This document shows positions 1,361-16,548 of a stretch of 64,000 nt of DNA, one piece after another. Source of the stretch: a virus (lineage: Duplodnaviria > Heunggongvirae > Uroviricota > Caudoviricetes); IMG/VR virus record IMGVR_UViG_3300045988_163275, positions 32,001 to 96,000 of that record; one strand, 5' to 3'. The translations under genes and the position numbers were made by a program. Numbering within the stretch: the first letter of the stretch is position 1; each line of letters opens with the position of its first letter. The notes under the pieces are model-generated. The model was given only the letters and a program-made list of their open reading frames with translations, was not told where the DNA came from and ran no database searches.

Positions 1361-1366
1361 TACTCT

Positions 1367-1654: not shown

Positions 1655-1667
1655 ATCCTCACTGCGT

Positions 1668-1830: not shown

Positions 1831-1837
1831 TTAATAA

Positions 1838-1981: not shown

Positions 1982-1983
1982 AT

Positions 1984-2358
1984 TTACCACCAGGCGCAGA
2001 AGGTCAGTCTATTATTGTGAAAGTCGTGGTTCTTAATCAGATCTTCCACAATCTCTTTCAACTCCCCCACATCATGCCAGTAACCTTCATCGTACTCCTG
2101 ACTGCCGAAGAAAAAACCTTCCTGGGTAGGCAAGTACTCTTCGCAATTACTTTCGTTTATGTGCATCAAATGAGCCTTCAGAAAACAAATGTCATTCATC
2201 GTTAATTCTAAAAGCTCACAATTTTCGACTTCACCTACGTTGCGCTCCATCCACCCAACGAGCGCATTGAACTTACGGAAGTAAGCAACCTGCTTTCTGG
2301 ATGCCTCGTTATTCAGATCGTTTTTTGGCTGCGTCTCGATGTAGATATCAAGCCCCAT
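1984..2358 (-). CDS. hypothetical protein
   Basis: track ORF 1984..2400 starts with GTG; internal ATG at 2356-2358 has AAGGAA SD (MGLDIYIETQ...); alternative ATG at 2392-2394. Confidence 0.45.
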   Translation of the reverse strand: MGLDIYIETQPKNDLNNEASRKQVAYFRKFNALVGWMERNVGEVENCELLELTMNDICFLKAHLMHINESNCEEYLPTQEGFFFGSQEYDEGYWHDVGELKEIVEDLIKNHDFHNNRLTFCAWW

Positions 2359-2416
2359 GATGGTTTCCTTATTAAGTTGCTTCAGTGAAATCATTTTCAC
2401 AAATCAGATAAGGCAG

Positions 2417-2440
2417 AAAACAAATTGTTATCGGGCATAA
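2417..2440 (-). promoter_or_regulatory. leader motif A copy (degenerate)
   Basis: GAAAACAAATTGTTATCGGGCATAAG upstream of 1984..2400. Confidence 0.35.
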
Positions 2441-2475
2441 GAAAATGGCGCGGGGTACGCGCCATTCAAAGAGGA

Positions 2476-2871
2476 TTAAGCGAATACGCTTTCAGGGACA
2501 ATGGTGTCGATCTTTTCGCCGGAGATTATTCGCAGACCGTGTTGTCCCATCCAGGTACTATTGGTATTTAAACTCGATGTATAAACCGCATCGACCTTTT
2601 TCATCAAATTTTCAAACAACGTCTGATCCGCGCCACGGAAATGAGTTTCCAGTTTTATCAGTAAAGGGTCAGAAGCATTACTGATGCTTTGGTAACGCAC
2701 CGAATATTTCCCCTTTGTCGCCTCGCCGGTGCGAGTTAAGGTACTGGTGTGAACTTCTTCGCCGGAGGCATTATCGCGTAGCACAATTGTAATTTTTGCA
2801 ACTTTGTCTCCATTTTCCGTCTCTGATGCATAATACATATCCAGGGTCAGATTTTCGCGTTTAACGGTCAT
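2476..2871 (-). CDS. hypothetical protein (131 aa)
   Basis: ATG at 2869-2871 with AAGGAGAG SD 5 nt upstream. Confidence 0.55.
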   Translation of the reverse strand: MTVKRENLTLDMYYASETENGDKVAKITIVLRDNASGEEVHTSTLTRTGEATKGKYSVRYQSISNASDPLLIKLETHFRGADQTLFENLMKKVDAVYTSSLNTNSTWMGQHGLRIISGEKIDTIVPESVFA

Positions 2872-2908
2872 TTCACTCTCCTTAGTGTTTAATTTTTAAT
2901 TTTATTAT

Positions 2909-2927
2909 CATAAGTAAGTACTTACAA
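2909..2927. promoter_or_regulatory. palindromic operator-like motif B copy (TAAGTAAGTACTTAC)
   Basis: palindrome core TAAGTACTTA, 38 nt upstream of ATG 2871. Confidence 0.5.
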
Positions 2928-2935
2928 TACAAAAA

Positions 2936-2962
2936 AGCCCCGAAGGATTGGCGGGGCTGTCG
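2936..2962 (-). terminator. rho-independent terminator
   Basis: minus strand GCCCCG-loop-CGGGGC followed by TTTTTT, just 3' of stop of 2993..3304. Confidence 0.6.
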
Positions 2963-2992
2963 TACATTCGACTAACTACTGCTTGCACATGT

Positions 2993-3304
2993 TTAAGCTA
3001 CCGCCTGAACAGACGCTCGTTGGATCTCTTGTTGGGCGACACGGTTGGCTTCCATCAGCGCCAGTTCAAGCTGGTCCTCTGGCCACATTTTCTGGACCGA
3101 CATCCACCCTCTTCCACGCTGGCGACGAACTACCATCACATAGCGCGTAAAATTGCCCGCGTCGAAGGTAATGGCTTTTTCACGAAACAGACGGATAGAA
3201 GTCCCATTCGCTACGATATCCAGCAATGTGAGATGCCCCATTAAGGTTGGTTTTTCTTTTCTATCCTGGCCTTCAGCAAGACCCAGCACCAATGAAGTAT
3301 TCAT
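2993..3304 (-). CDS. hypothetical protein (103 aa)
   Basis: ATG at 3302-3304 with GGAG SD; track ORF extends to 3334 over motif A. Confidence 0.5.
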   Translation of the reverse strand: MNTSLVLGLAEGQDRKEKPTLMGHLTLLDIVANGTSIRLFREKAITFDAGNFTRYVMVVRRQRGRGWMSVQKMWPEDQLELALMEANRVAQQEIQRASVQAVA

Positions 3305-3314
3305 CACCACTCCG

Positions 3315-3350
3315 TAAACAAATTGTTTTCTCAATGGCGTAAATAATACC
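3315..3350 (-). promoter_or_regulatory. leader motif A copy
   Basis: AAACAAATTGTTTTCTCAATGGCGTAAATAATAC 11 nt upstream of ATG 3304. Confidence 0.5.
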
Positions 3351-3464
3351 AGTGTAAAAACGGCTACAAAGCATATTGCTCAGGCACATGAATTATCTAA
3401 AGGTGGTTCTGCCCTGCGGCTACAGAGAAGTTAAGCCAGCAGGCGGTGCTGGCTTTGGTTGGGC

Positions 3465-3794
3465 TTACGCGAATAACTCAAGGAATTCCTGCACGTCCCA
3501 ATGCTGGACAAGGTGAAGATAGAGCTTAGAAATCACGTCATTCTCGCTATCGCATGTGAAGTAGTACTTCTGGCTGCGGTTGTATGTGTCCACACAAAAT
3601 TCGCTCATATCCATAAAGTCAGCATCTTCACCCATGTCGCAAATAATCAAAGCAGGAGCATCATCACGAGTCATCAGCTCAAGCACCCAGCGCGAATTGA
3701 TCAGCGTGGAAGACCAACCTTCTAACTCATAAAACTGGTCAAACTCTTTTTGAGTCATTTTCTTGATTTGGTTGATGTCGATATTTGCAAACAT
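3465..3794 (-). CDS. hypothetical protein (109 aa)
   Basis: ATG at 3792-3794 with AAGGAT SD; track ORF extends to 3860. Confidence 0.5.
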   Translation of the reverse strand: MFANIDINQIKKMTQKEFDQFYELEGWSSTLINSRWVLELMTRDDAPALIICDMGEDADFMDMSEFCVDTYNRSQKYYFTCDSENDVISKLYLHLVQHWDVQEFLELFA

Positions 3795-3806
3795 AAAGCA
3801 ATCCTT

Positions 3807-3840
3807 AAACATGTTGTTTTCTGAATTGCGTAAACAATAC
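3807..3840 (-). promoter_or_regulatory. leader motif A copy
   Basis: AAACATGTTGTTTTCTGAATTGCGTAAACAATAC upstream of 3794. Confidence 0.5.
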
Positions 3841-3933
3841 CAGTAAGAAAACGGCCACAAAGTATATCGTTACGGTGCTGCGCTGCCCCGGAGGTTAATA
3901 GCGACAAAAGCCACCGTGCTGGTGGTCTCACTC

Positions 3934-4152
3934 TTAATCTTCGTCGTCCGGGAACTCGCTGTGTACCGCGTCCACCAGCTCCCGCTTTTCATCTTCACTA
4001 AGCAGGTGCCAGATATCCTTCCCTTTGGGCGATTCCCCTTCTGCCGGGACGAACGACCACAACTTGCGGTACAACTCCGGCCCCACTGCATCCAGACACT
4101 CAGCCAGGGAATCCACGCCCCACACCTCAACCGTCACAGGCATCTTAATCAT
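3934..4152 (-). CDS. hypothetical acidic protein (72 aa)
   Basis: ATG at 4150-4152 with GAGGAT SD; preferred over overlapping low-complexity frame 3870..4130. Confidence 0.5.
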   Translation of the reverse strand: MIKMPVTVEVWGVDSLAECLDAVGPELYRKLWSFVPAEGESPKGKDIWHLLSEDEKRELVDAVHSEFPDDED

Positions 4153-4183
4153 CTCTTCATCCTCACTTCGTTTCTATAACGTC

Positions 4184-4218
4184 TAAATATGTTGTTTACT
4201 TGTTGGTGTTATTATCGC
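4184..4218 (-). promoter_or_regulatory. leader motif A copy
   Basis: AAATATGTTGTTTACTTGTTGGTGTTATTATCGC upstream of 4152. Confidence 0.5.
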
Positions 4219-4239
4219 AATAAGACAAAGGCGAAAAAG

Positions 4240-4700
4240 GATTTTATGTCGTGAAAGCCAGGCTGGGCAGTGAATATCCGGGAACGACACGGGAACCAGT
4301 ATTTACGATATTCTGCTCTACGCGCGCCGCAGGGCTGGTGGGCAGAATTTTCTTCTCCCCGAAAACCTACTGAAATCGCTTGAGACCCGAGGATGGTCTG
4401 GCAGACTGGAGTTCAGCAGCTGCACGAGAGGGAACGACACTCCCCCGCGATTTTCAGGCGAGTGAAGAGTAAGGCGCACTCCCGAAGATTTCCCGCACCG
4501 CTCCCGCAGTCGTCTCTCACTCTGTACCGGGATGTACCCGTTTCCCGACCGGCAGCCAGCCTTTTCCCGGTTCGTATAGCGAGATTCCCACCGTTTCCCT
4601 GAAAAACCTCCAGCCTTTTCCCTGCGGCGACGTTCCCGTTCCTGAAAAGGGACATGGCCTTTTCCCTGGATGGCCCGAAGGCTGACCGAAGGGGTGGATA
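4240..4700. repeat. cluster of GGGAAC / CCGTTTCCC / CCTTTTCCC short repeats (copy 2)
   Basis: CCGTTTCCCTGAAAAA ... CCTTTTCCCTGCGGC arrangement mirrors 540-640; ORF-free. Confidence 0.5.
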
Positions 4701-5560
4701 GGGACGTTACGGGGGATGAAAGCTATGGCTTGAATTTATACGAAGAAAGTGGCGATACCCCTCCTTCCCTTCCCACTTATACCTCCCACGAATTTTCTCT
4801 CTTATGTGGGCATAAATCTTCTCTCTGATAACGCTCAATACGGCGACTATTCCTGTGGGTGAAATGGGTGGTTTGTTCTTTCTACCGGCATATGTGGTTT
4901 CGTTCTTCTTGAGGTGGTTCTTCTCTGTGTTTTCGTCAGGGTTGTTCTCGTTGTTTTGGTGATTGTTCTTCTCTGTGTATGGAGTAATGGCAGGTGGGCG
5001 ATTCCTTTCGTTATTGTATTTGAGTTGTTTGTCTTGAGAGCGTGAAAGGCTTTTGTGGTTATTTGTGTATTGAGTAATGGCGTTTCCCCGCGAATGTTCT
5101 GTTTCGTGTCTTTGGGGATTGAGGGAGTCCTTGCGGTAACAGGCTTCGTTAGAGTTTCAGTGGTTCTGGTGTTTATTCGCTGTTTGGGGAATGGCGTGTA
5201 GTGGGTATCGCATGTATGAATGTTTCGAGTTGCCTGTGAAAGTTAGGTTGGTTGTCCGGTAGCCTGGGAAGAAGAGGTGGGTCTTTTCAGTAGCCTGCCA
5301 TAAAGAGGTTGGTTGTTTTTGGGAATGTGGGTAATGGCGTCTCTGGGTTTCCTGTGGGTGTGGTTAGCTTGTTTTCTTGTGTCTGAAAACAACTTGTTTA
5401 GATGTCCAATATAACGCAACGGGAGCGCTTCTGAGCGTGTCTGTTTTTGGGTGGTATCACGAGTCGTTTTTGACGTTTTGGTCGCAGGGAGATGGATTCT
5501 GGTACGCTGGATTTGGGTATAAGAGATGGCGTGCGAAAACATCAACTTTTTAGACCAAAT
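4700..5560. repeat. ORF-free region with extreme G+T strand bias and internal direct repeats
   Basis: plus strand almost entirely G/T; repeated (G)AGTAATGGCG at ~4983, 5073, 5186, 5329 and GTTCTTCTCTGTGT twice; track ORFs here are compositional artefacts. Confidence 0.5.
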
Positions 5561-5595
5561 CAGGGGAAAGCGTTGACTTTACGTTGATGTGTTAT

Positions 5596-5625
5596 TTATT
5601 TGTTTTCTTATGGGTGTAATTAGCT
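5596..5625 (-). promoter_or_regulatory. leader motif A-like copy facing the G+T-rich region
   Basis: TTATTTGTTTTCTTATGGGTGTAATTAGC; would direct minus-strand transcription into 4700-5560. Confidence 0.3.
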
Positions 5626-5741
5626 TAAATGCCTTGTCACGCCTGGGATTGAGTGGGGTAGGGTGGTGGGGAAAGTGGCGATCAACGGACTCTTATAGAA
5701 ATCCTCAATTTGTGACCGCCAATATCAACGAGTTGCAGCCG

Positions 5742-6311
5742 TTAGTTGTTCAGATAGGCATCCGGAACGCGCACATAAAAGTTTCTTTCGCCGGTCAGTT
5801 CCAGAGTAACGTTTATGTCGTTGCCGTTATCCAGCGTAGCCGTCGCTTTATAGAACTTGTCCGTCACCTTGTCCTGAATTGTCACCTTCATACATTTCGG
5901 CGCTGTGGTTCCGTTATTCTCTTTCAGAATGGTCGTTACGAGAGGACAAGCCGCTTCTTCAAGAGCAACCTCTTCCTGGTGTGGGATACCGATGAAGATG
6001 TTACCAGCAAGCAACGCGACGATTACGATAAAAGGAAGTCGACTGCCTTTTGTAACGGTGGCACGTTTCCAGAGATAGACCGGAAGGAGAAATACTCCCC
6101 ACAGGATGGCCGGTGGTTCATACCCTGCATCAGACAATGCCATTCTGTCAGCCACCAGAAAGCCGAGTCCAGCGACTCCACCTATCACTATTGCATAATT
6201 CAAATACTCATCTGGCGGTACTCCAAAGAAGAGAGGCAGTAAAGCTAGAAGCCACGCATAAGCATTATTCAGAGGTTTTGTTTGTTGGTTCTGGGTTTCC
6301 ATCACATCCAT
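5742..6311 (-). CDS. hypothetical integral membrane protein (189 aa)
   Basis: three hydrophobic helices (LLALLPLFFGV, VIGGVAGLGFLV, FIVIVALLAGNIFIG); ATG at 6309-6311. Confidence 0.5.
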   Translation of the reverse strand: MDVMETQNQQTKPLNNAYAWLLALLPLFFGVPPDEYLNYAIVIGGVAGLGFLVADRMALSDAGYEPPAILWGVFLLPVYLWKRATVTKGSRLPFIVIVALLAGNIFIGIPHQEEVALEEAACPLVTTILKENNGTTAPKCMKVTIQDKVTDKFYKATATLDNGNDINVTLELTGERNFYVRVPDAYLNN

Positions 6312-6387
6312 TCCATCAGATTAAAAAGCGGTACTATGTTACCAATTTTCTTCGCTTATATGACATGATTACTCAACGAGTGGGCGA

Positions 6388-6708
6388 TCACCATTCCCAT
6401 GCAGGTAGCCCATCCACCAGCTCGGCGTCGCAATCGAAGTGAACCACGTCAAAGCCGTCATCCAGTATGGTCTGTATGTTGGAGATCGCCTCTTGGGAAA
6501 TGCCGTACTCACGCAGTTCTTCCTTCCAGTCATTCCCTCGCATTCCAGCACGAACAATCCAGCCGTACTGTGTACCGTGTACCCAATTCAACCCGCGATC
6601 AGTAAGTGGGTCGAAGCAGGCAATGGGTAGCCGTTCTGAATCCGCTGCCGTGACGTGGGCGGTGCTGATCACCGCCGTCTTATACGATTCGGTGATTTTC
6701 AGCATCAT
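6388..6708 (-). CDS. hypothetical protein (106 aa)
   Basis: ATG at 6706-6708 with AAAGGAGAAGG SD; overlaps stop of upstream gene. Confidence 0.55.
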   Translation of the reverse strand: MMLKITESYKTAVISTAHVTAADSERLPIACFDPLTDRGLNWVHGTQYGWIVRAGMRGNDWKEELREYGISQEAISNIQTILDDGFDVVHFDCDAELVDGLPAWEW

Positions 6709-6941
6709 GCCTTCTCCTTTGGAAACAGAATGTTGGCCGTGTCAGAAATGACATCCCAATTCACGCCGACGCTGGCGTCATGGCACTCTTTGATTTTTCG
6801 CAAAACCTGAACGCACTGTTCGTCAGTCAGGTCTGGTCGCCCTTCACCTACATCTTCCTTGTGCCACATCACCATCAGCAGCGGCTCGTCTTCTGGGTAG
6901 TTCTCCAGCTTTTCGATAATTTCTTTCGCGGTTCCGAACAT
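6705..6941 (-). CDS. hypothetical protein (78 aa)
   Basis: track ORF starts TTG at 6959; ATG at 6939-6941 with AAGGAG SD 6 nt upstream. Confidence 0.5.
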   Translation of the reverse strand: MFGTAKEIIEKLENYPEDEPLLMVMWHKEDVGEGRPDLTDEQCVQVLRKIKECHDASVGVNWDVISDTANILFPKEKA

Positions 6942-6953
6942 GATTAACTCCTT

Positions 6954-6986
6954 AAACAATTTGTTTTCTTATTGGTATTATTATCT
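6954..6986 (-). promoter_or_regulatory. leader motif A copy
   Basis: AACAATTTGTTTTCTTATTGGTATTATTATC upstream of 6941. Confidence 0.5.
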
Positions 6987-7026
6987 CAAATAACGAAAGG
7001 CAGAAAACAAGATGTTTAAGGGATGA

Positions 7027-7293
7027 CTAGGTGAGTTTGAAGTCGTCTATGTCATCAACAAACTCCATATACCTGGCTTCGACACTCGACAATCTGATCA
7101 GATACGCAAGCCCGTAACTTAGTGAAGTGGGTTGCTCCAGCACAAATTCGAACCCATCCTCATGCGTTTTACCAAGCCAGAACCCCCCACCGTATTCTTT
7201 TTCACGTTGGAAGAAAACGAACTGTCCGGGTATTAGGTGCTTGAGTGCTTCGCCCCTATAGACGATCACATATTTAGAATTCTTGCTGCCCAT
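7027..7293 (-). CDS. hypothetical protein
   Basis: track ORF 7027..7350 starts TTG; ATG with GAGG SD at 7291-7293; start uncertain. Confidence 0.4.
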   Translation of the reverse strand: MGSKNSKYVIVYRGEALKHLIPGQFVFFQREKEYGGGFWLGKTHEDGFEFVLEQPTSLSYGLAYLIRLSSVEARYMEFVDDIDDFKLT

Positions 7294-7381
7294 TGCTCGC
7301 CTCGCAATACTGCACATATAAACAGTGGTATTTATTACGGTACTGGTCAACTTTACGGGTTAATTGAATAACAAGATGGTG

Positions 7382-7400
7382 AAAACAATTTGTTTTGGCG
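7382..7400. promoter_or_regulatory. leader motif A core in divergent intergenic region
   Basis: AAAACAATTTGTTTTGGCG between minus gene ending 7350 and plus gene at 7481. Confidence 0.35.
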
Positions 7401-7480
7401 CTTGAGATTTTGCAAATCGCACCTACATGGAAAACGGCAATTTTTGAAACCTGATTTGACCCATGTGAAAGGAGGAAACG

Positions 7481-7684
7481 ATGAAGACCTATGATCGCAA
7501 CCGTAACACTATCACTACCGGCAGCCGAGTGATGGTGGCAACGAATGGTGCAACGGGAGTCATCAAGGAAATCTGCGGAGAAGGCAAATCAGAAGAACAA
7601 TTACGCCGCTCTGACTGCGTGTCTATCGAAGGTGTGGAAGATCTGTTCTGCCCAATGGATTTAGTTCGCCTGGGATTCCAATAA
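7481..7684 (+). CDS. hypothetical protein (67 aa), plus strand
   Basis: ATG preceded by AAAGGAGGAAACG SD; isolated plus-strand gene. Confidence 0.5.
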   Translation: MKTYDRNRNTITTGSRVMVATNGATGVIKEICGEGKSEEQLRRSDCVSIEGVEDLFCPMDLVRLGFQ

Positions 7685-7698
7685 TTACACCACTAATT

Positions 7699-7712
7699 AA
7701 ACAAATTGTTTA
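7699..7712. promoter_or_regulatory. leader motif A core (partial)
   Basis: AAACAAATTGTTTA next to GGCCACAAATAATGGCC hairpin 7717-7738. Confidence 0.25.
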
Positions 7713-7739
7713 AGGCCACAAATAATGGCCTTATCTGGC

Positions 7740-8438
7740 TTACGGAACAGCAGTAATCAGATCGCAAATGCCTGTTTTAGTTAAATCACTATTTAGCTTC
7801 TGAAAATTGGCATTCAGCATTGCGGTATGTATTCGATTCTCAAGTTCAAAGAAGAGATCGATCTTGCCCTCTTTGGCTGCCACCTTCTTCCAAATATTCA
7901 CCTGGTCATCTGCGATACGACTTGCGCAGGTGAACAAGAACGAACTCCCTCTGGGAAGGGATGTCGTGCTGTAGTATTCACCGTCAACTTCAATATACTT
8001 AGCTCGGAATGACTCCAGAGTTAGCTTTTTACCGCTCTCAGCCTGCTTTGTGTCTGCCTTGCTTGTCTTTTCCTGAACTTCAGGCTGTTTCTGCACAGGC
8101 TTTGGTGTCTCATTGACCACCGCAGTGCTGGCCGAACCATCCAAACTCTTGAGGCCATTAATTTGGATTAGATAAGCCAACTCCAGAGTCTTATCACCAG
8201 TGAGTTTTCCACGCATACTTACCCATTGACGCTGAACCGTCTTTAAGGCGTCTGCGTCCCCCGGGTTTGCTTTGAGTGCGTTGGAATAGGTAGAGCTAAG
8301 TTGTTCGTCTAATTTTGACAGGCGTTCGTTATCGCAGATTTTGTGTTCGATTTCTGCCGAAGCCTTTTGGCAGTCAAAGCTGGCTGCAAATACAGCCGGC
8401 GATGCCACCAACAATGATGCCAGTAGGATATTTTTCAT
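7740..8438 (-). CDS. secreted protein with LprI/DUF1311-like N-terminal domain
   Basis: signal peptide MKNILLASLLVASPAVFA; FDCQKASAEIEHKICDNERLSKLDEQL pattern; ATG 8436-8438 with GGAG SD (track ORF starts at GTG 8444). Confidence 0.6.
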   Translation of the reverse strand: MKNILLASLLVASPAVFAASFDCQKASAEIEHKICDNERLSKLDEQLSSTYSNALKANPGDADALKTVQRQWVSMRGKLTGDKTLELAYLIQINGLKSLDGSASTAVVNETPKPVQKQPEVQEKTSKADTKQAESGKKLTLESFRAKYIEVDGEYYSTTSLPRGSSFLFTCASRIADDQVNIWKKVAAKEGKIDLFFELENRIHTAMLNANFQKLNSDLTKTGICDLITAVP

Positions 8439-8476
8439 ATTCACTCCATAAATATAAAAGCGCCTGACTATAGCAC

Positions 8477-8692
8477 TTAACCGATTGCTTCTCTCATCTG
8501 ATTGTGAAGCTCTTTCAGCCCATTACGTACCGCGTTCATGATACGTTCCAGGTATTGGTATCTGGGGTTTGGCACCGTTGGCCAACCGGCATACCACGGA
8601 TCGTCACCAAACAGACTCAGCAGTTCGTTACCGACACCGAAACAGCAGCAACTTTCTTTTACGTCATCAGCGTTTTCTGCCTCGTCCCACAT
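8477..8692 (-). CDS. hypothetical protein (71 aa)
   Basis: ATG at 8690-8692; reading frame stays open ~23 codons upstream without a start. Confidence 0.35.
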   Translation of the reverse strand: MWDEAENADDVKESCCCFGVGNELLSLFGDDPWYAGWPTVPNPRYQYLERIMNAVRNGLKELHNQMREAIG

Positions 8693-8738
8693 ATTGCGGG
8701 CCTGCTCTGCGTCGATTTCTCTCTCTCCCTGCGCAACT

Positions 8739-8978
8739 TTATGATTTCGGATTTGACGAAAAGCAGGTTTGCGTCGTTGTCATCGTCGACCGTACTGAAG
8801 TGGCACACTGAATTTGGCCGTCTGTAATGGGCAGATCCGGCAACTGTTTAAAAACTTCCATCTGCTCATGGATACGCAGAAACCACCTTGCCAGCTCCAT
8901 CTGCTCACCGCGGGTGAGGGGATTATTCAGCGGGGACTTAACAAAAGCGGAGACTCGCTCGACAAGCAGATCATTCAT
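8739..8978 (-). CDS. hypothetical protein (79 aa)
   Basis: ATG at 8976-8978 overlaps TGA of upstream gene (ATGA coupling). Confidence 0.35.
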   Translation of the reverse strand: MNDLLVERVSAFVKSPLNNPLTRGEQMELARWFLRIHEQMEVFKQLPDLPITDGQIQCATSVRSTMTTTQTCFSSNPKS

Positions 8979-9664
8979 GCCGCGCACCTCTCTGCTTTCT
9001 CCTGCAATTCGCGAACGAACTCGACCAAAGAGCCACCTGGCGGGATCTGGCATTCCTCAACCAACTGGAAGTATATGTCTGCGGCCGCGCGTGTGTTCGA
9101 GCCTTTGTTTAGCTGCTCTTCGCGCAGCGCATCACGTTCATTAATCAAACGGACGCACTCGCCGTTACGCTGATCCACAACGGCCTCAAGTTCAGCGATA
9201 CGTTCGCCAGGAGTCTTACCTTCTTTACGTTGAATGGTGACGGTAAACTCACCCATTTCAGGAACGTCGTACCCCAGCTCCAGGTAGTTTCTGGCCCCGC
9301 TACGAACAAACTCACCGGCAAACATGGTTGCGAACATCGCAGAGGCCATTTCACCTTTAAACAGAGACTCCAAATCTAACGGAGTACCCGCAGCCAGAGC
9401 CGTTTTTTCTGTATCAATTGCAGACATGAATGCATCAAATTCACGAGCACGTTTTTCCAGGTCTCTCCATTGCTCGCTCCAACGTTTAGCAACGAAGTCT
9501 ATGAATGTTTTCGCGGATTCATCATAATCCCCTTCAAACTTAACAGTGCCTTTGTCAATGATGATCTGGTCTACTGCTTCCTCTGCATAACCTCTCATTA
9601 CAAATTTGAAAGGAAAGTCGGCATGGCTTTTGACGTTAAAACGCTCTAACGGAAGATTGCTCAT
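8975..9664 (-). CDS. hypothetical protein (229 aa)
   Basis: ATG at 9662-9664; no recognisable motif. Confidence 0.5.
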   Translation of the reverse strand: MSNLPLERFNVKSHADFPFKFVMRGYAEEAVDQIIIDKGTVKFEGDYDESAKTFIDFVAKRWSEQWRDLEKRAREFDAFMSAIDTEKTALAAGTPLDLESLFKGEMASAMFATMFAGEFVRSGARNYLELGYDVPEMGEFTVTIQRKEGKTPGERIAELEAVVDQRNGECVRLINERDALREEQLNKGSNTRAAADIYFQLVEECQIPPGGSLVEFVRELQEKAERCAA

Positions 9665-9705
9665 GTGTTTTTTCTCTTATCATATAGTCACTATATTCTT
9701 ACATA

Positions 9706-9728
9706 GATTAGGTAAGTATTTACCTCTC
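9706..9728. promoter_or_regulatory. palindromic motif B copy
   Basis: GATTAGGTAAGTATTTACCTCTC between genes. Confidence 0.5.
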
Positions 9729-11412
9729 ATTTAACGCGTTTAAAAACGTATACGCTGACAGTAATCCCGGTGTCTTCAAACATGTTAGTAAACGACTTCC
9801 CTTTGGCATAAACGTAATTATCCAGCGTCATCCAGTTTAGAATTGGCGCGTCGCCCGGCAGCACTGCTACCAGACGCCCACCGACTTTCAGATGTCCCAG
9901 CGCGGCCAACGTGTGCTCTCTGTGACGGCCAAGAGAGTAGGGCGGGTTCATGACGATTTTGTCGAACTGATAACCTGCGTTGTCCTCAGACCACTTCATG
10001 AAGTCGCAGCAGACCGTATTTGTGTACCCCTTGCCAAGCAGGATATCAGCGAAGAGAGGTGCGACTTCTATGCAGGTAACGTCTTCCGGATTGGCGTCGA
10101 TGCAGGCCAGCAGATCTCCGCGCCCGGCTTCAGGCTCCAGCAGCTTCTCACCTGGCTTCAGCTCGATGGCTCTGGCAACGTACTCCGCTATCAAACGCGG
10201 GGTAGGGTAGAACTGGTGTGATTTTGTATCCGGTATTAAGCCGGTGGCCACAATCGTATTGAGCGTATGGCCGATCTCATACGGGAACTGCCAGTGCTTG
10301 TTCTCCTGCACGCCGCCAATAAAGCTCAGTGTACGCTCCAGCTCTTCCACCTGTGACTTCTGAAGACCGGAATCAGAGAAGTACCATACGCGTTTGTCAT
10401 TGCCAGATCGCCCGTCGCGAAGCGCAGTACGCACCGGCTCGGAGATCGTCTTCTGGATTAACCCGAACTGTTTTGGTGCCCGTGTTTTGGGCGCAGTACG
10501 ACATGGAGCCGGGATTGCAGCGGGCATACTGTAAGCCAGCACCTCATTCAGCTTCCAGGCTACGTCAGGATGTATTTCAAAGTGAACGTTGCCGTTCTTA
10601 AACATCTTCACACGCATCAGGTTTCCGTCGACATTCATCCAGTCGCCGGTCTGGCAGTCATTTGCTCGATACGCAGCTGACAGCATCTCGGCCGTGCGGT
10701 TGATGGTGATAAATTCTTTGTGTGCAAAGAAATGCAACATGACGCGCAGGTCGTCTATGTAATCCTCTTTCCGGTAGTTAACGCTGACGCTGTCCCGCCA
10801 GAAATCGGAAATGCAGTCGGCGATGATCAGACGCTCGCTGAAGCCGTTCGTCTTATTGGTCTTGTGAGCAGGACTCAACGCCTTAAACAAGCCATACACG
10901 CGCTCAGAGAGATATTTGTGCCTGTCATTCAGCAAATTAAGCATCGTTGGTATGACCGTTTCTGCTTTGAACTCAGGTACACCAACGAACTCTTTAACCT
11001 TCATTTGATAGCCAGTTCTGTCAGTCTTGATCGTTTCCTGCTTGCCCTCGATAAACTGTTCACGCCACTCGTCGCGGCGGGATGCTGGCATGATCAGCAG
11101 AACGTTGGTCATATCCGTGACCTTCTTCCAGTACTCGGCCCAGATATTTTGTTTCACCCATTCCAGGTCGACTTTGTCCAGCCAGGTTCTGTTAAAGCGT
11201 GTGCGCTCGTCGTCCGGCCGGTGGTTAAGTCGCAGTAGACGGTTAATCATGTTGTGGCGTTCGTCGCCATAAACGAAGTCGTGAACCTTATTCATGAACG
11301 CAATCTCTTTCTCGCATTCGGCCACAATTTCGTGGATAACATTCATTTCCTGCCGGTAGTCAATACCGGTGTCTGGAGTGATAGAGTCAATGATGGAAAG
11401 GGCTGTATTCAT
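9727..11412 (-). CDS. putative amino-methyltransferase (likely DNA N6-adenine) with large N-terminal domain of unknown function
   Basis: C-terminal FYPTP ... LEPEAGRGDLL ... VMNPPYS motifs (AdoMet motif I then NPPY); ATG 11410-11412 (track ORF starts TTG 11430). Confidence 0.55.
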   Translation of the reverse strand: MNTALSIIDSITPDTGIDYRQEMNVIHEIVAECEKEIAFMNKVHDFVYGDERHNMINRLLRLNHRPDDERTRFNRTWLDKVDLEWVKQNIWAEYWKKVTDMTNVLLIMPASRRDEWREQFIEGKQETIKTDRTGYQMKVKEFVGVPEFKAETVIPTMLNLLNDRHKYLSERVYGLFKALSPAHKTNKTNGFSERLIIADCISDFWRDSVSVNYRKEDYIDDLRVMLHFFAHKEFITINRTAEMLSAAYRANDCQTGDWMNVDGNLMRVKMFKNGNVHFEIHPDVAWKLNEVLAYSMPAAIPAPCRTAPKTRAPKQFGLIQKTISEPVRTALRDGRSGNDKRVWYFSDSGLQKSQVEELERTLSFIGGVQENKHWQFPYEIGHTLNTIVATGLIPDTKSHQFYPTPRLIAEYVARAIELKPGEKLLEPEAGRGDLLACIDANPEDVTCIEVAPLFADILLGKGYTNTVCCDFMKWSEDNAGYQFDKIVMNPPYSLGRHREHTLAALGHLKVGGRLVAVLPGDAPILNWMTLDNYVYAKGKSFTNMFEDTGITVSVYVFKRVK

Positions 11413-11423
11413 GATTGCACCAT

Positions 11424-11456
11424 TAAACAAATTGTTTTCTTATTGGTGTTATTTTC
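11424..11456 (-). promoter_or_regulatory. leader motif A copy
   Basis: TAAACAAATTGTTTTCTTATTGGTGTTATTTTCTC upstream of 11412. Confidence 0.5.
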
Positions 11457-11513
11457 TCAAAGCTAAAAAGGCGTAAAAGCAGCATTCACAGGCGTTGCAG
11501 CTGATTTAAGACG

Positions 11514-11536
11514 TAAAAAGGGGGCTTTCGTCCCCT
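11514..11536 (-). terminator. rho-independent terminator
   Basis: minus strand GGGGACGAAAGCCCCC followed by TTTTT, 3' of stop of 11553..12125. Confidence 0.6.
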
Positions 11537-11552
11537 GTACGCAGGTGAGAGA

Positions 11553-12125
11553 TTAGTGGTGTACGTGCTGCGTTTTGTACGGCTGTTTGTTCAGGTTGTG
11601 GCGGTGCATAAGCTCGCGCATCATGTCTTCAAGACGGCTCTTGGTGTCGTCAAGCTGGTCGGCCATTGCCCCCAGCAGCTGGCGAAGGGCCATCGGATCG
11701 TCGCTGTTCAGCTCAGGCATTTTGAACCCAGCCTGGGAAGACATCAGTTTGAAAGCGGCCAGCAACATCGCCAGAGAAGACTTCAGCCCGGCGATTTCAT
11801 GATCTTTGCTGGCGTTGGTTTCATCTGCCTTGACTGAATCCAGTGAGCACTTCGGCTTGCTTACCATTTCCAGAGTTGCCTGAAGTTTGTCGGCGCGTTC
11901 TTTCTCTTCCAGATACGCTTCGCCGAAATGACGCGCCAGCATCACAATTTCAATCGGATCATCAATCATGCTTGAGAACTTGAGAACGCTGAAAAGGCGG
12001 TCAATAGGGGAGGCGTCGTCTTCGTGACCAACCACAAGACCCATGATCTCAACCAGTTCGGCCGCACCAACTTTTTTAATCACGCTTTCAACTTTGGCAT
12101 TAGTTTTTTTGCATTTTTCACACAT
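11553..12125 (-). CDS. hypothetical protein (190 aa)
   Basis: ATG 12123-12125 with AAGGAAG SD. Confidence 0.5.
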   Translation of the reverse strand: MCEKCKKTNAKVESVIKKVGAAELVEIMGLVVGHEDDASPIDRLFSVLKFSSMIDDPIEIVMLARHFGEAYLEEKERADKLQATLEMVSKPKCSLDSVKADETNASKDHEIAGLKSSLAMLLAAFKLMSSQAGFKMPELNSDDPMALRQLLGAMADQLDDTKSRLEDMMRELMHRHNLNKQPYKTQHVHH

Positions 12126-12144
12126 GTGTTCTTCCTTATGCTTT

Positions 12145-12178
12145 TAAACAAGTTGTTTTCTTAATTGTTTAATTGTCT
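12145..12178 (-). promoter_or_regulatory. leader motif A copy
   Basis: TTTTAAACAAGTTGTTTTCTTAATTGTTTAATTG upstream of 12125. Confidence 0.45.
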
Positions 12179-12333
12179 CAAATTCTATGATGATGTGAAG
12201 AGTTGCATTAAGGCGAAAAGACACGCAAAAGGAAAAATCAGGCATACCAGACATTTATTTAAAGTGGCATTCATAGCAGAATGTTCTCATTGCCGAAGTT
12301 CTATTCAGACGTCAGTCCCTAAGAGAGAGCAAA

Positions 12334-13293
12334 ATGTTTGGTAATCTTTTCAAAACGGAAGAAACTAAGGCCCGGGAGGGCTTGGAGTCTCATTATCAGA
12401 AAGTCATGAGCTTCGTTGCTGAAAATGATCTACATGAAGCATGGGAAAAAACACGCAATATCATTTTTCGAAATATGGAAGTTAGAAGCTACATCACGCA
12501 AAACGGCGCGTTCGATCGTAACGATTTTTACTATAAGTCAGCCAAAGAGAAGCTTATTCAAAGCGCCTTCACTTCATACCTACTCATAAAAGTTTTACCT
12601 CAGTTCTATGAAATGCATCTCACCACTTTGAAAAGAAAAGAAAAAACACTCACAACACAGGATGAATACGGGGTCTGGAACTTTGACAAGTGGTTTGATG
12701 AAGTAGACTACTTTTATGACAAGGTAGTAAAAGAGAAAGTTTACGATTGGATCGAAGAGAACACAGGCCGGCTCAACAACCTTTGGTTGGCAGAGTCGGA
12801 GGACAAGAATGCCTGGGGGCGGCCAGTTTACTTTAAATTCCAGTTGCCTGAACAATTTGATCGCTGCGCAATAAATCACATTATGACGGTGGTAGACAAT
12901 ACACCAGAACCTGAATTACCTGAGTACACTTCGCTACTGACCGGGCACGAATATGAGCATTTTGTCGCTGGGGAGTTTATGAAGTATGGATCCGACACCC
13001 AAGTAACTAAGGGCAGCGGCGATCACGGTCTGGATATCCTTGTAACCTATAGAGAAGTTCGAATGGCTGTTCAGTGCAAACACTACCAGTCTAAAGTAGG
13101 CAACAAAGCTATTCAGGAAGCATTTTCCGCGAAACAGTTCTACGATTGCTCCCTCGCAATAGTAGTCAGCAACAGCGAGTTTACCCCTCACGCCAGACAA
13201 GCAGCCAAAAAACTGGACGTTTATCTGTATCACCATGAAGATATACACTTAATAATAGACGCCATTAATAATTGGCTGGATGCGCCGGAGTGA
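12334..13293 (+). CDS. Mrr-like (PD-(D/E)xK) restriction endonuclease-domain protein, N-terminal domain unknown
   Basis: C-terminal GSGDHGLDILV ... VQCKHYQSKVGNKAIQEAF ... IVVSNSEFTPHARQAAKKLDVYL resembles Mrr catalytic domain; plus-strand, AT-rich, amid minus-strand genes. Confidence 0.6.
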   Translation: MFGNLFKTEETKAREGLESHYQKVMSFVAENDLHEAWEKTRNIIFRNMEVRSYITQNGAFDRNDFYYKSAKEKLIQSAFTSYLLIKVLPQFYEMHLTTLKRKEKTLTTQDEYGVWNFDKWFDEVDYFYDKVVKEKVYDWIEENTGRLNNLWLAESEDKNAWGRPVYFKFQLPEQFDRCAINHIMTVVDNTPEPELPEYTSLLTGHEYEHFVAGEFMKYGSDTQVTKGSGDHGLDILVTYREVRMAVQCKHYQSKVGNKAIQEAFSAKQFYDCSLAIVVSNSEFTPHARQAAKKLDVYLYHHEDIHLIIDAINNWLDAPE

Positions 13294-13328
13294 AGATTGA
13301 GGGGCTAATGCCCCCCCCTATTCGTCGG

Positions 13329-13517
13329 TTAAAAGAACCCGAGGATGCCGCCCACTGGAACAATGAAAACTCCCACGACACGCGCAAGTGTCACTCCGGC
13401 ATGAGACTGGAGATCGCCATCGTTCACAAGTTTCACCAGATTCATGATCCAGCCGCTAAACAAAAAAACGGTAAAGCCAACAATCATCAAGGTGAATTTC
13501 TGGAAGTTCCATTTCAT
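13329..13517 (-). CDS. hypothetical small membrane protein (62 aa)
   Basis: two hydrophobic segments (FTLMIVGFTVFLF, VVGVFIVPVGGILGFF). Confidence 0.3.
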   Translation of the reverse strand: MKWNFQKFTLMIVGFTVFLFSGWIMNLVKLVNDGDLQSHAGVTLARVVGVFIVPVGGILGFF

Positions 13518-13526
13518 ACAATAGCC

Positions 13527-14120
13527 TCAGTCACAGCAGAAGGAAGATCCGGAGTCGCAGGTCGAGCTGGAATCGTGTCCATCAGCATCCCATCCAGAGA
13601 GACAGGAGGTCGTTCGGGCAGGGGGGTCATCTGCAAGGCCGTGGTGGCAGTGGAAGTAGTTGTGCCCGGCATCAAAAGGCTCTGACCGGCTGGTACGGTA
13701 ACCGCTGCCAGAGTTGCCAAAATCACTCCGTAGGCCATTGGCTTCAGTCGATTTCGTTGAAAATTTTCCATGAGAACTGTCCTTGTGTGTCCGGGTTTCA
13801 CGCAAAACACGAGAAGCAACGCTATTACGCACCTTCTCCATGCCTACTGTCGTGCCCAGATTAGCTATGGCGGTAGCTTGCGCATTAATGCGCTTCTCCA
13901 GTTCAAACACTCGTTCTTCCAGTTCCGCAAGGCGTGCGGAAACACGACCACTAAACAGCTCGGTCAGCACCAGGCGAATTGAACGGGGACGTTTATTGAA
14001 AGAAGTGAAAGACGTTTGACGGGCCATGTGGATTCCATTCAGTGTCAGAAAGAGTTGCGGCTGGCCAAGCCGCCTTTTGGCGTTCCATCCTGGAACCGTA
14101 CCTAACCGGTACTTCGTCAT
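13527..14120 (-). CDS. hypothetical coiled-coil protein; 3' part overlaps an alternative frame
   Basis: ATG 14118-14120; N-terminal half has LAELEERVFELEKRINAQ heptads; C-terminal third is low-complexity and overlapped by frame 13514..13819 (signal-peptide-like protein). Confidence 0.35.
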   Translation of the reverse strand: MTKYRLGTVPGWNAKRRLGQPQLFLTLNGIHMARQTSFTSFNKRPRSIRLVLTELFSGRVSARLAELEERVFELEKRINAQATAIANLGTTVGMEKVRNSVASRVLRETRTHKDSSHGKFSTKSTEANGLRSDFGNSGSGYRTSRSEPFDAGHNYFHCHHGLADDPPARTTSCLSGWDADGHDSSSTCDSGSSFCCD

Positions 14121-14151
14121 CCTGACGATTTATAAGATACCTGATTTATTA

Positions 14152-14175
14152 TAGTAGGTAAATACTTACTTATCT
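14152..14175. promoter_or_regulatory. palindromic motif B copy
   Basis: TAGTAGGTAAATACTTACTTATC 32 nt upstream of ATG 14120. Confidence 0.5.
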
Positions 14176-14177
14176 TT

Positions 14178-14774
14178 TTATGACAAAAACCCAATGTCAT
14201 GCTTGTGAGGCATATCAGCTGCGGAATAGGCGGCGATCTTCGCCAGACGGTCACACATTTCGTTCTCGCGATGACCTGCATGGCCTTTAACCCACTTCCA
14301 GCGGACATTATGACGACTGGCGGCCGCGTCGAGACGTTTCCAGAGATCCACGTTTTTGACTGGCTTCTTCTCAGACGTGATCCATCCGTTACGCTTCCAG
14401 CCTTTCATCCAGAGCGTCATGCCGTTTTTAAGATACTGGCTGTCGGAATGCAGGATCACGTTGCAGGGGTACTTCAGACGCTCCAGCGCAATCAGGGCGC
14501 CCATCATCTCCATCCGATTGTTGGTCGTGCTGTGGAAGCCCTCAGAAAGCTCGCGCTCTTCGCCTCGATACTGGAGAACGATGCCGTAACCGCCCGGCCC
14601 GCCCGGATTTTTGAGGCAGGAGCCATCACTGAATACTTTTACGGTTTTGAGCTGGGGATTGAACTCGACTACGGGTGTGTTGAAATTGGTACGGGAATGC
14701 TGGTGGGTTTGGCATCTGGCTTTAGACTTCGTGCGGCAGCCAGTGCGTTGCCGGACTGGGTTCTTGGTCGTCAT
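14178..14774 (-). CDS. rnhA: ribonuclease HI with ~40-aa basic N-terminal extension
   Basis: [18 protein letters not shown] ... [11 protein letters not shown] ... HSDSQY ... [13 protein letters not shown] ... [15 protein letters not shown] match RNase HI catalytic motifs; ATG 14772-14774 with GGAG SD. Confidence 0.85.
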
Positions 14775-15368
14775 TTTGGCTCCAGAATCGTGCGCCGCGA
14801 CGATTTTTGTTTTCTCGCGCGTGTGCGCACGCGTGCGTGTAAATAATAAAAAATTTTATAAAAGAAAAACTTACTTCCCAGAACAGGTTTTAATAAAACC
14901 TGAACTGAACGAACGAAGTGAGTGAAGTTCACCTCGAACGAAGTGAGAGGTTGTCTTTTCAGGTAATACTCTCCCAGGGAGGTGAGTACAAAATTTCCTC
15001 ACCAACCTGGTCGTTTCATAACCTGAAAAGTTATGACCTAAGTCTACTGCCAGCTTAGGCTTGGGAAGTTATGGATGACAGCACCCCAGAACCGAGATCT
15101 TCCCACACTTTATGAAGGGGAGTACTGGAATCAACCTCTCGAAACACTCCAGACTCGACAATCATAAAGTGACCCTTCTCTCTGCTCACTTTGGTTCCCC
15201 CTTCCCCAACCCCTAAACGGTGCTGGTTCTACGCTGGTAGTGAGCTTTTTTAAACCTGACGCCAGTGACGCAATCCCCCACCCATCAGGTCGAGCTGCCG
15301 AAAGTATCCGGAAGCGGATAGATTGTATCACTGGTTAGTGGCGCTTTGAATGGTAAGTACTTACCTAT
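14775..15368. other. ~600-bp ORF-poor structured non-coding region
   Basis: alternating GCGCGTGTGCGCACGCGTGCGTG tract, AT-rich block, direct repeat CGAACGAAGTGAG x2, several inverted repeats; only low-complexity ORF 15131..15331. Confidence 0.4.
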
Positions 15369-15370
15369 TA
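15349..15370. promoter_or_regulatory. palindromic motif B copy
   Basis: TGGTAAGTACTTACCTATTA; faces the non-coding region. Confidence 0.5.
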
Positions 15371-15598: not shown

Positions 15599-15737
15599 GA
15601 TAATTTTCCTTACTGTGGTTCATAAAATCGATTCTAGAGCGTCTGGAGAGGGACTCCAGTGGGTTCTGGAGGTGTAAAACGGTCTGGGAGTTGTTTGGAA
15701 ATCACGTCTTAAAAAGCCTGCGTCTGTATATATTAAT

Positions 15738-15755
15738 AATTAGTACTTAGTTATT
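15738..15755. promoter_or_regulatory. palindromic motif B copy (degenerate) inside larger inverted repeat
   Basis: TAGTACTTAG flanked by CCTGCGTCTGTATATAT / ATATATACGGAAGCAGG arms. Confidence 0.4.
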
Positions 15756-15800: not shown

Positions 15801-16394
15801 TTACGCTGCCTTTTTACGTGGTCTCTTCTTCCTGACAACATTGGCAGGGTCATAACCACCCAGCTTTTTCATCACCGCCAGCGGTATCTTGCTGATGGTG
15901 TGCCCAGCTTCCTGACAGTAGCCACGGAAGATAAGCAACATGCTGCCACCAGGGTTGATGTTCACCTCCACCAGCCCAAGTTCAACATCCGGCTCAACGA
16001 ACGCCACGCGGCCGCCAGACAAGATGACGGTTTCGTTGGCGCATTCAGCCGCACGCTCGTACCACTGCGTATCGAGGGATTGTGGTATCAGCATGACCGT
16101 CGTCACTCCACGCGCCTGCTCGCGAATGGCTGCGTCTATCCAGGGGGTGATTTTGGAGTAGGGCGGGTTAAGGAACGCCACAGTGCCAGGTTCTCCCCAA
16201 CTGCACTTGAGCGCATCACGCTCAACACCGATAAAGTTCGGCAGGAGAGCATTATCTTTGTTGCAGGCGACGTCCACATCGAACTTTACGCCTATGTAAC
16301 GTTGGATGGCGACAAACAACCACTGCGGTGTGCGCCAAAGGTCGCGAAGAGAGGCATCACGCTCTCGCTTTTTGATTTTTTCGGCTGCGATCAT
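15801..16394 (-). CDS. dam: phage-type DNA N6-adenine methyltransferase (Dam family)
   Basis: DLWRTPQWLF ... DVACNKDNALLPNF ... FLNPPYS signature; ATG 16392-16394. Confidence 0.8.
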   Translation of the reverse strand: MIAAEKIKKRERDASLRDLWRTPQWLFVAIQRYIGVKFDVDVACNKDNALLPNFIGVERDALKCSWGEPGTVAFLNPPYSKITPWIDAAIREQARGVTTVMLIPQSLDTQWYERAAECANETVILSGGRVAFVEPDVELGLVEVNINPGGSMLLIFRGYCQEAGHTISKIPLAVMKKLGGYDPANVVRKKRPRKKAA

Positions 16395-16405
16395 TACTTT
16401 ACTCT

Positions 16406-16426
16406 GATAGGTAAATACTTACCTAT
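16406..16426. promoter_or_regulatory. palindromic motif B copy
   Basis: GATAGGTAAATACTTACCTAT 12 nt upstream of dam ATG. Confidence 0.55.
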
Positions 16427-16548
16427 TTTTTCATTTAATCCAACGGATAGCAAACAAAGAAGAACGCGCCAGATTCGCAAACGGGAAGCTCTCTGGCGCG
16501 TTTTATCGATGCTGGGTAAGCCAATTCATACCCAGCATCCTAAAGCTC

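Follow-up and report, generated by a model that had tools for sequence, protein, structure and literature searches.

In the ZorD, LmuA and Avs4 systems, the nuclease stays inactive until a sensor fires. Shedu places both functions in a single protein, SduA, in which a rapidly varying N-terminal domain is thought to gate the activity of a PD-(D/E)xK nuclease. A single-gene cassette from a Vibrio cholerae superintegron, Epona, combines two transmembrane (TM) helices with an Mrr_cat nuclease domain and is reported to be anti-phage in Escherichia coli (bioRxiv 10.1101/2024.07.02.601686), and SNIPE, which consists of a TM segment, DUF4041 and a GIY-YIG nuclease, is tethered at the membrane and needs its middle domain for function (bioRxiv 10.1101/2025.11.03.685801). 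Here we compare with these systems a gene in a 64,000-nt stretch of a Caudoviricetes record of IMG/VR (IMGVR_UViG_3300045988_163275, positions 32,001–96,000; hereafter the window, to which coordinates refer unless a relative's locus is named). The gene occupies 12334–13293 on the plus strand, from an ATG start to the stop codon inclusive, and by Pfam and homolog alignment encodes a stand-alone Mrr-type nuclease of 319 residues. It is an autonomous unit, a promoter-like element plus an open reading frame (ORF), that sits in a swappable slot and moves between mobile elements without a partner gene. We read it, with about even confidence, as a moron-like accessory gene of an SSU5-type phage-plasmid whose product may be a single-polypeptide, sensor-controlled DNA endonuclease for defence or exclusion against phages or competing mobile DNA.

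The first-pass annotation, made from the letters of the window, had proposed a 319-residue protein with a C-terminal Mrr-type PD-(D/E)xK nuclease, and domain searches agree. Pfam places Mrr_cat (PF04471) at residues 202–303 with 76.6 bits against a cutoff of 21 (E = 2.1e-21), overlapped by weaker matches to the related PD-(D/E)xK models NA-iREase1, RRG7 and Mrr_cat_2. Pfam, alignments and Foldseek together delimit a nuclease core at residues 200–305 (12931–13248, plus strand), and the fold matches of this domain are AF1548, MspJI, AspBHI, Hjc and the Avs4 nuclease domains. The putative catalytic residues E208 (codon 12955–12957), D234 (13033–13035), Q247 (13072–13074) and K249 (13078–13080), as well as D230 (13021–13023), all read on the plus strand, are invariant in an 11-sequence alignment of the window protein with ten homologs; in a 125-sequence family alignment, E208, D230 and D234 are at least 90% conserved. 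The resulting E...D...(Q)xK pattern is as expected of an active Mrr-type site, and it is from this motif pattern that we infer the catalytic roles. Judged by its sequence, the C-terminal domain is an Mrr-type PD-(D/E)xK nuclease with its putative catalytic residues intact. PHROGs matches of the window protein are confined to the same domain, NCBIfam has no family for the protein, and a sequence search of solved structures in the PDB returned nothing at E < 0.8. In near-identical plasmids the protein is named 'restriction endonuclease' (WP_089591471), and the names across the nuclease family in the databases are all this same generic one. Homology to a housekeeping family, which the first-pass annotation had set against its own proposal, was not found for any such family.

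The first-pass annotation had called the 200-residue N-terminal domain unknown, and residues 1–200 indeed have no match in Pfam or NCBIfam, also at permissive thresholds, nor among PDB or viral-structure entries. We distinguish three parts, all encoded on the plus strand. Residues 1–84 (12334–12585) form a soluble helical head in AlphaFold 2 models, with a predicted local distance difference test score of about 90 and no predicted TM segment; the head opens with an invariant MFGNLFK-type peptide, and an MFG(N)LFK N terminus recurs across the soluble-head subfamily. Residues 85–136 (12586–12741), delimited by hidden Markov model (HMM) search and alignments, are predicted to form a conserved helix/β-hairpin/helix module with the motif HLxTLKRKxxTL..DxYG..(F/Y)(D/E)KW..E.DYF (in short, TLxRK..DxYG..W..E..YF), in which R101, K102, D110, Y112, W120 and E123 are the residues conserved in alignments. 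Residues 137–199 (12742–12930) form an acidic linker with helices and a low-confidence loop. The net charge is 0 in the head, −1 in the module and −7 in the linker, and the isoelectric point of the whole protein is 5.4. A Kyte–Doolittle scan of the window protein found no TM segment, so it does not carry two N-terminal TM helices. Within the close family, mean pairwise identity falls from 78% in the nuclease to 63% in the module, 55% in the linker and 53% in the head, which is thus the fastest-evolving part.

The module is what links the window protein to a larger family. We searched the profile of the N-terminal region exhaustively by HMM against 1.84 billion representative proteins, which gave 206 representative clusters at E < 1e-3; except in a few close relatives, the common part is confined to positions of about 85–135. 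Mrr_cat was present in 114 of 125 scanned module-bearing proteins. In every one of the 124 proteins in which both were detected, the module lies ahead of the nuclease, at a gap of 33–99 residues and in one to three tandem copies, and the window protein has this layout, with its module at residues 85–136 and its nuclease from residue 200. Pfam holds no model covering the TLxRK..DxYG module, and a profile search of a word-indexed protein database brought up no further named distant family members. One or two TM helices are present in at least 56% of the wider family and in most cases begin among the first 10 residues. Two distant members, P0016 (653 aa) and P0025 (549 aa), consist of a signal peptide, an extracytoplasmic domain of about 220 residues, a TM helix, two or three modules and Mrr_cat, a layout like that of a transmembrane receptor with a nuclease output. 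Across the wider family, the head is swapped for TM anchors or for signal-peptide and extracytoplasmic domains, and the module and nuclease are kept.

On these profiles and alignments, the module appears to be undescribed and to define a sizeable Mrr_cat subfamily with exchangeable N-terminal inputs. By analogy, this recalls sensor–effector immunity proteins, in which effector and adaptor are conserved and the input changes fast and can be exchanged. A more far-reaching proposal, which we put forward tentatively and consider rather doubtful, is that the window protein is a soluble-head member of an undescribed, widespread family of modular 'receptor-nucleases'. In such proteins, activation of an Mrr-type nuclease would be coupled to interchangeable inputs (a soluble head, one or two TM anchors, or a signal peptide with an extracytoplasmic domain and a TM helix) by an adaptor module of about 50–100 residues in one to three tandem copies. 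This would be a new single-protein immunity architecture, which mobile elements, SSU5-type phage-plasmids among them, would trade in place of an antirepressor.

Measured against described systems, the resemblance lies in the nuclease. The best PADLOC matches of the window protein, all to the nuclease domain only, are ZorD (E = 1.5e-15), PDC-S02 (E = 8e-11) and LmuA (E = 5e-5). The likeness to type I Zorya covers only positions 948–1057 of the 1071 in the ZorD profile; unlike ZorD, the window protein has no SNF2 helicase, and no zorABC genes lie near it. The LmuA match is weak, and, unlike in Lamassu, no LmuB/SMC-like neighbour is present in the window or at the homolog loci. Avs4 contributes a nuclease domain to the fold matches, whereas no STAND ATPase is found in the window protein or adjoining it. 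Unlike in these three systems, a sensor of the window protein, if it has any, would be its own 200-residue N-terminal region. PDC-S02 is a computational singlet candidate with profiles of 324–390 aa that likewise end in Mrr_cat; we rejected identity with it because its profiles never align to the head or the module, only profile positions of about 190–300 of 334 aligning in the window protein and nine relatives. NA-iREase1 (PF22722; E = 3e-11), a model for inactive, NACHT-associated enzymes with a degenerate catalytic site, was also set aside: the match is weaker than that of Mrr_cat, the putative catalytic residues of the window protein are intact, and neither the protein nor a neighbour has a NACHT domain.

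Epona, which we compared by description only, is by analogy of layout the nearest experimentally supported architecture that we found: it too is a single polypeptide that joins a non-catalytic N-terminal part to Mrr_cat, and over half of the module family also carries one or two TM helices, although the window protein has none. SNIPE is an analogue only. Its membrane-tethered nuclease recalls the membrane-anchored majority of the module family; it differs in its GIY-YIG fold and its middle domain, and the window protein is not membrane-anchored. Shedu follows the same logic and serves as a mechanistic analogue, but its nuclease belongs to another subfamily and its N-terminal domains are unrelated in sequence and fold; neither DUF4263 nor a Shedu model is among the Pfam and PADLOC matches of the window protein.

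Published inventories of defence genes did not include this one. A survey of phage-plasmids describes several defence systems on SSU5-type elements, none of which is this nuclease (bioRxiv 10.1101/2025.09.12.675607). Two candidates from Salmonella SSU5-type elements were considered and rejected on the DefensePredictor tables, in which DS-33 comprises two genes (construct code GNAT) and DS-37 is another hypothetical protein, WP_000982358.1. The signature peptides of the family were not found in the supplements of the DefensePredictor paper, a weak negative as the sequences there are incomplete. A type II restriction–modification (RM) system does not describe the locus either: there is no adjacent cognate methyltransferase, the cassette holds a single gene, and the neighbours differ in every other context.

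The main rival to a sensor-controlled defence nuclease is a type IV modification-dependent enzyme acting in the manner of E. coli Mrr, whose N-terminal region would read a modified base and whose Mrr_cat domain would cut nearby. It would need no methyltransferase partner because unmodified or Dam-only self DNA would not be a substrate. The general plan is similar: a solitary gene with no cognate methyltransferase in any of five contexts, a C-terminal Mrr_cat domain of the same Pfam family, and an N-terminal specificity region followed by a C-terminal nuclease. Moreover, the fold matches include the modification-dependent enzymes MspJI and AspBHI, several wider-family members weakly match the PADLOC 'mREase_IV' models, and the invariant R101, K102, D110, Y112, W120 and E123 of the module could form a base-binding pocket. 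However, Pfam and fold searches found no Mrr_N winged helix, SRA-like domain or other known modified-base reader in the window protein, and because of this its architecture is not that of an E. coli Mrr-type enzyme. Its N-terminal region is unrelated to that of such enzymes and acidic or neutral rather than basic, an uncommon property in a DNA reader. For the window protein itself, PADLOC gives no mREase_IV match at E ≤ 1. More than half of the wider family is membrane-anchored, in part with extracytoplasmic domains, a better fit to nucleases controlled by signal or location than to scanning readers. Finally, the element encodes three DNA methyltransferases (two in its backbone and one in an AT-rich island described below), which narrows the modifications that could be targeted without self-harm. 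On balance we consider a type IV enzyme unlikely, though it is the alternative to be taken most seriously.

The genomic setting of the gene bears on the remaining alternatives. Matches to the region are non-mobilizable IncFIB plasmids from E. coli, Salmonella, Citrobacter, Enterobacter and Klebsiella, and Salmonella phage SSU5 matches its flanks at about 93% identity; the window is therefore an SSU5/pHCM2-type phage-plasmid. To the left of the gene lies a backbone gene homologous to SSU5_094 (phrog_5508; 11553–12125, minus strand), outside the cassette, and to the right an SSU5_092 homolog (phrog_6006; 13329–13517, minus strand), whose stop codon abuts the cassette edge. In BLASTN comparisons with related elements that carry the antirepressor gene Ant (L002 and L003), homology stops at 12176 and restarts at 13331, and thus, as junction alignments also indicate, the swappable cassette is 1154 bp long (12177–13330) and contains the nuclease gene and its signals alone. 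In SSU5 and most of its relatives, the same slot holds a 980-bp cassette with a minus-strand Ant/Rha antirepressor gene (phrog_63). The window and seven E. coli plasmids of PLSDB have the plus-strand nuclease instead, and in a third group, from Citrobacter, Enterobacter and Salmonella, the slot is empty, with only about 117 bp. The Ant/Rha slot is polymorphic, with three states in PLSDB: Ant/Rha, nuclease or empty.

In a Cronobacter sakazakii plasmid with a diverged SSU5-like backbone, the slot is filled by a 66%-identical homolog of the same orientation, and the immediate backbone neighbours of this homolog have diverged to a like degree (57–66% amino-acid identity); the nuclease is therefore a long-standing alternative occupant of the slot rather than a one-off insertion. 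In that plasmid, pCsaCS931a, genes for a DUF3927 protein and a TerB-family protein lie between the nuclease and the SSU5_092 homolog (L013, 7976–8574), so two or more accessory genes can share the slot. Other arrangements were seen around the slot as well. In pLR-46_1 (L004), an extra 417-bp ORF (5188–5604) stands between the methyltransferase gene and the SSU5_094 homolog, and copies of ISKpn26 cut the backbone short directly right of the nuclease hairpin (8722–11895). Several nuclease-bearing elements are cointegrates of 158–240 kb.

A cassette with these properties could in principle be a selfish, free-standing, homing-like endonuclease that cuts nuclease-free alleles of the slot and is copied in by repair. 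It is an optional, AT-richer, intergenic single-gene insert with sharp junctions between conserved phage genes, it is polymorphic in presence among related elements, and its left junction lies inside a repeated intergenic element. We nevertheless regard homing as very improbable: the flanks of five contexts cannot be aligned outside the promoter-like core and share no common target sequence, Mrr_cat is no known homing-endonuclease family, the gene replaces another cassette instead of interrupting a conserved target, and homing fits poorly with a wider family that is largely membrane-anchored.

The repeated element at the left junction deserves description in its own right. The cassette edge lies about 50 bp upstream of the start codon of the SSU5_094 homolog, within the last copy of a 43–69-nt intergenic repeat that recurs over 1170–12199, with copies starting at 1170, 1655, 3303, 3794, 4172, 5580, 6941, 11412 and 12133. 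Each is located just upstream of a minus-strand gene start and has a palindromic core, AAACAAnTTGTTT, followed by TCTT(A/G)TTGGTGT(A/T)ATTAT. A promoter scan called sigma70-like sites inside two copies, and the repeat probably serves SSU5-type elements as a reiterated early promoter/operator.

The cassette interrupts a uniform direction of transcription. As the first-pass annotation had noted, the gene is encoded against its surroundings: between 8975 and 17505 the nuclease is the one plus-strand gene, and every other credible gene lies on the minus strand. Its AT-richness is also borne out, at a GC content of 43.0% compared with 47.8% for the window and with 50.7% and 50.2% for the backbone on either side. 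Upstream, we find a promoter-like element at 12254–12282 (plus strand), with a weak −35 sequence TTTATT (12254–12259), a 17-nt spacer and a −10-like CAGAAT (12277–12282). A core G[CT]AGAAT, which in the window reads GCAGAAT, is kept upstream of all close homologs and lies 46–59 nt before the ATG in five independent genomic contexts whose upstream DNA is otherwise unalignable; the chance of the motif falling within a 30-nt band is about 0.005 per sequence. The mobile unit therefore comprises this element together with the ORF. A generic promoter scan made no call at 12254–12282, and we infer promoter activity from the conserved core. A purine-rich, Shine–Dalgarno-like AAGAGAGAG can be read at 12321–12329 (plus strand), 4 nt before the ATG, and tracts rich in purines are found at this position in the homolog loci too.

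Between the convergent stop codons, at 13299–13316, a GC-rich hairpin (minimum free energy −12.3 kcal/mol on the plus strand and −15.9 kcal/mol on the minus strand; z = −2.7) may be an insulating terminator, a role that is uncertain because it has no U-tract and a terminator scan made no call. Rfam found nothing credible over 11400–14200; its lone match, to the c-di-GMP-I riboswitch at 13694–13779 (minus strand), scores 20.1 bits where the gathering score is 35 (E = 0.76), falls within a coding region and is most likely due to chance. The promoter-like element with its conserved −10-like sequence, the possible terminator, the opposite orientation, the lower GC content (43% versus about 50%) and the presence/absence or replacement polymorphism of the slot are likenesses to phage morons and would fit the definition of one.

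The genes around the cassette form a DNA-metabolism block that includes a Dam-like methyltransferase, RNase H and a DUF4942 methyltransferase, to which one relative (L001) adds a 3′–5′ exonuclease, dihydrofolate reductase and thymidylate synthase. The position of the gene in this block raises the possibility that the nuclease serves the life cycle or maintenance of the phage-plasmid itself, through degradation of host DNA, processing of recombination or replication intermediates in lytic growth, or post-segregational killing. The relation of the Mrr_cat fold to Hjc-type resolvases and the long association with the backbone implied by the filled Cronobacter slot are in keeping with such a role. 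However, the gene is absent from most SSU5-like elements, phage SSU5 included, and the slot is empty in some, so the life cycle does not depend on it; its direction runs against that of the DNA-metabolism genes, and it has a promoter-like element of its own; and the same gene occurs in non-phage contexts, namely a Klebsiella chromosomal locus, an IncFII contig and integrative islands. A killing module would in addition be expected with an antitoxin-like partner, and there is none. A life-cycle function is in our view improbable, less so than homing.

Within the same block, the methyltransferase gene at 9727–11430 (minus strand) encodes a 567-residue DUF4942 protein with a weak, sub-threshold N6_Mtase match that is annotated as a methyltransferase in relatives, and the gene at 15801–16394 (minus strand) encodes a phage Dam-like N6-adenine methyltransferase. 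Neither has an adjacent nuclease partner, and both are also present in relatives without the nuclease gene. A second palindromic intergenic motif, TAGGTAAATACTTACCTAT, recurs between minus-strand genes of the block, at 9699–9735, 14145–14181, 15344–15369, 15730–15755 and 16398–16434.

Farther along the window, an AT-rich island (32775–41969; GC 37–43%) contains four plus-strand ORFs of 1111, 228, 655 and 1036 aa, named in near-identical plasmids as a SNF2-related protein, a DUF4391 protein, a site-specific DNA methyltransferase and a DEAD/DEAH (DEAD-Res) helicase. The island is an RM-like defence cluster. The first-pass annotation had likened the nuclease gene to it; a functional link to this 32.8–42 kb region was considered and dropped, since the island is also present on relatives that have Ant/Rha in place of the nuclease and is therefore unrelated to the gene.

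As for the spread of the gene, proteins at least 90% identical to the window protein are found in E. coli, Citrobacter and Salmonella on contigs of 106–115 kb. The other full-length homologs, outside the phage-plasmid slot, were 50–83% identical: they lie in integrase-bearing islands of E. coli and E. marmotae at two different chromosomal sites, on a contig with an IncFII replicon gene, and at a chromosomal locus of the Klebsiella oxytoca complex beside a bacteriocin/lysis cluster. A 37%-identical homolog adjoins genes for a resolvase and a RecD-like helicase. No neighbour gene is common to these contexts, and none holds a cognate methyltransferase. In an E. coli integrative island (L005, 2487–5111; also L007 and L009), a HigB-like gene is followed by full-length matches to PD-Lambda-2 B (E = 3e-187) and C (E = 1e-157), placing this validated system about 5 kb upstream of a 70%-identical nuclease homolog. 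Related E. coli islands carry other cargo at the nuclease position, downstream of the same recombinase. The same 6.7-kb module (a 275-aa ORF, DUF5906, a resolvase, the nuclease, a 196-aa ORF and an OB-fold protein) was observed in two islands that differ in integrase and insertion site. A survey of the loci of 12 distant family members covered 94 neighbouring genes; DarT/DarG, AbiJ, three integrases, two resolvases and TnpB-like genes are among them.

Could the gene be a decaying or functionless remnant? It is rare: the phage-plasmid version occurs in 6 of 5426 complete E. coli genomes, and the full architecture in 1 of 185,579 species-representative genomes and on two IMG/VR contigs. Truncated copies of the island-type homolog (P0188, P0192 and P0195; 139 aa) also lie within long E. 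coli chromosomal contigs, which suggests occasional inactivation of the gene. Against decay, the full-length ORF is conserved over homologs from 37% to 83% identity with its putative catalytic residues invariant, and the upstream element is kept in all contexts. Pairwise nonsynonymous divergence (dN) among homologs is 0.2–0.45, and synonymous divergence (dS) is saturated or not computable; dN far below saturated dS points to old divergence under purifying selection, a qualitative comparison, as region-wise dN/dS is unreliable because of the saturated synonymous sites. We consider a remnant the least probable of the alternatives.

Several lines of evidence support defence or exclusion as the function. 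First, the gene is the sole content of a swappable phage-plasmid cassette, carries its own promoter-like element and recurs on unrelated mobile elements with no partner or methyltransferase. Second, a homolog shares an island with PD-Lambda-2, and the nuclease domain resembles those of ZorD, LmuA and Avs4. The sensor-like evolution of head and linker relative to the nuclease, the exchange of heads in the wider family, the functional constraint seen in dN and the reported activity of Epona as a precedent speak for it as well. The first-pass annotation had suggested a single-gene defence or exclusion module. The single-gene character holds, mobility, the lack of a partner and the PD-Lambda-2 context are added to it, and the defence role stays a candidate drawn from context.

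Several observations weigh against this interpretation. We found no experimentally tested homolog, and there is no anti-phage phenotype on record for any demonstrable homolog. The N-terminal domain has no recognisable sensor fold in structure comparisons; autoinhibition, oligomerisation and the trigger are therefore all proposals on our part. PADLOC defence models align to the nuclease domain only, in the window protein and nine relatives. Its immediate neighbours in the window are phage DNA-metabolism genes, not defence genes. The association of the 12 distant loci with defence and mobility is modest and was counted without a control set: many of their 94 neighbours are housekeeping genes, and some of the PADLOC matches among them are evidently housekeeping SMC proteins. 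Finally, as truncated copies occur in some E. coli genomes, the gene is dispensable.

If the protein is a sensor-controlled defence nuclease, its action might proceed as follows. In the plasmid-prophage state of the element, the weak promoter of the gene would drive its transcription, and the acidic helical N-terminal region, comprising the variable head and the module, would keep the nuclease inactive toward self DNA. On meeting an invader-derived cue, the N-terminal region would couple recognition to activation of the nuclease, probably by oligomerisation that brings nuclease domains together in pairs, the way other Mrr-domain defence effectors do. Once active, the enzyme would cleave DNA in a Mg2+-dependent reaction, so that either the genome of the invader is destroyed or the infection is aborted.

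What the analysis adds to the earlier reading is the polymorphism of a slot that holds Ant, nuclease or nothing, with a conserved promoter-like element that travels with the gene, and an undescribed module with exchangeable inputs. Should the protein be an ordinary type IV enzyme, the main gain would be better annotation. If instead it acts in defence or exclusion, the repertoire of SSU5/pHCM2-type elements, common among clinical E. coli, Salmonella, Citrobacter and Enterobacter, would be extended by a compact nuclease system of one gene, and the Ant/Rha slot would prove to be an exchange point for accessory functions. Such a role would also assign a function to the unnamed module that precedes Mrr_cat in about 200 protein clusters, now labelled only 'restriction endonuclease', and the range of heads in this family, from soluble to membrane-anchored and extracytoplasmic, would offer a tractable system for studying how inputs gate a PD-(D/E)xK nuclease.

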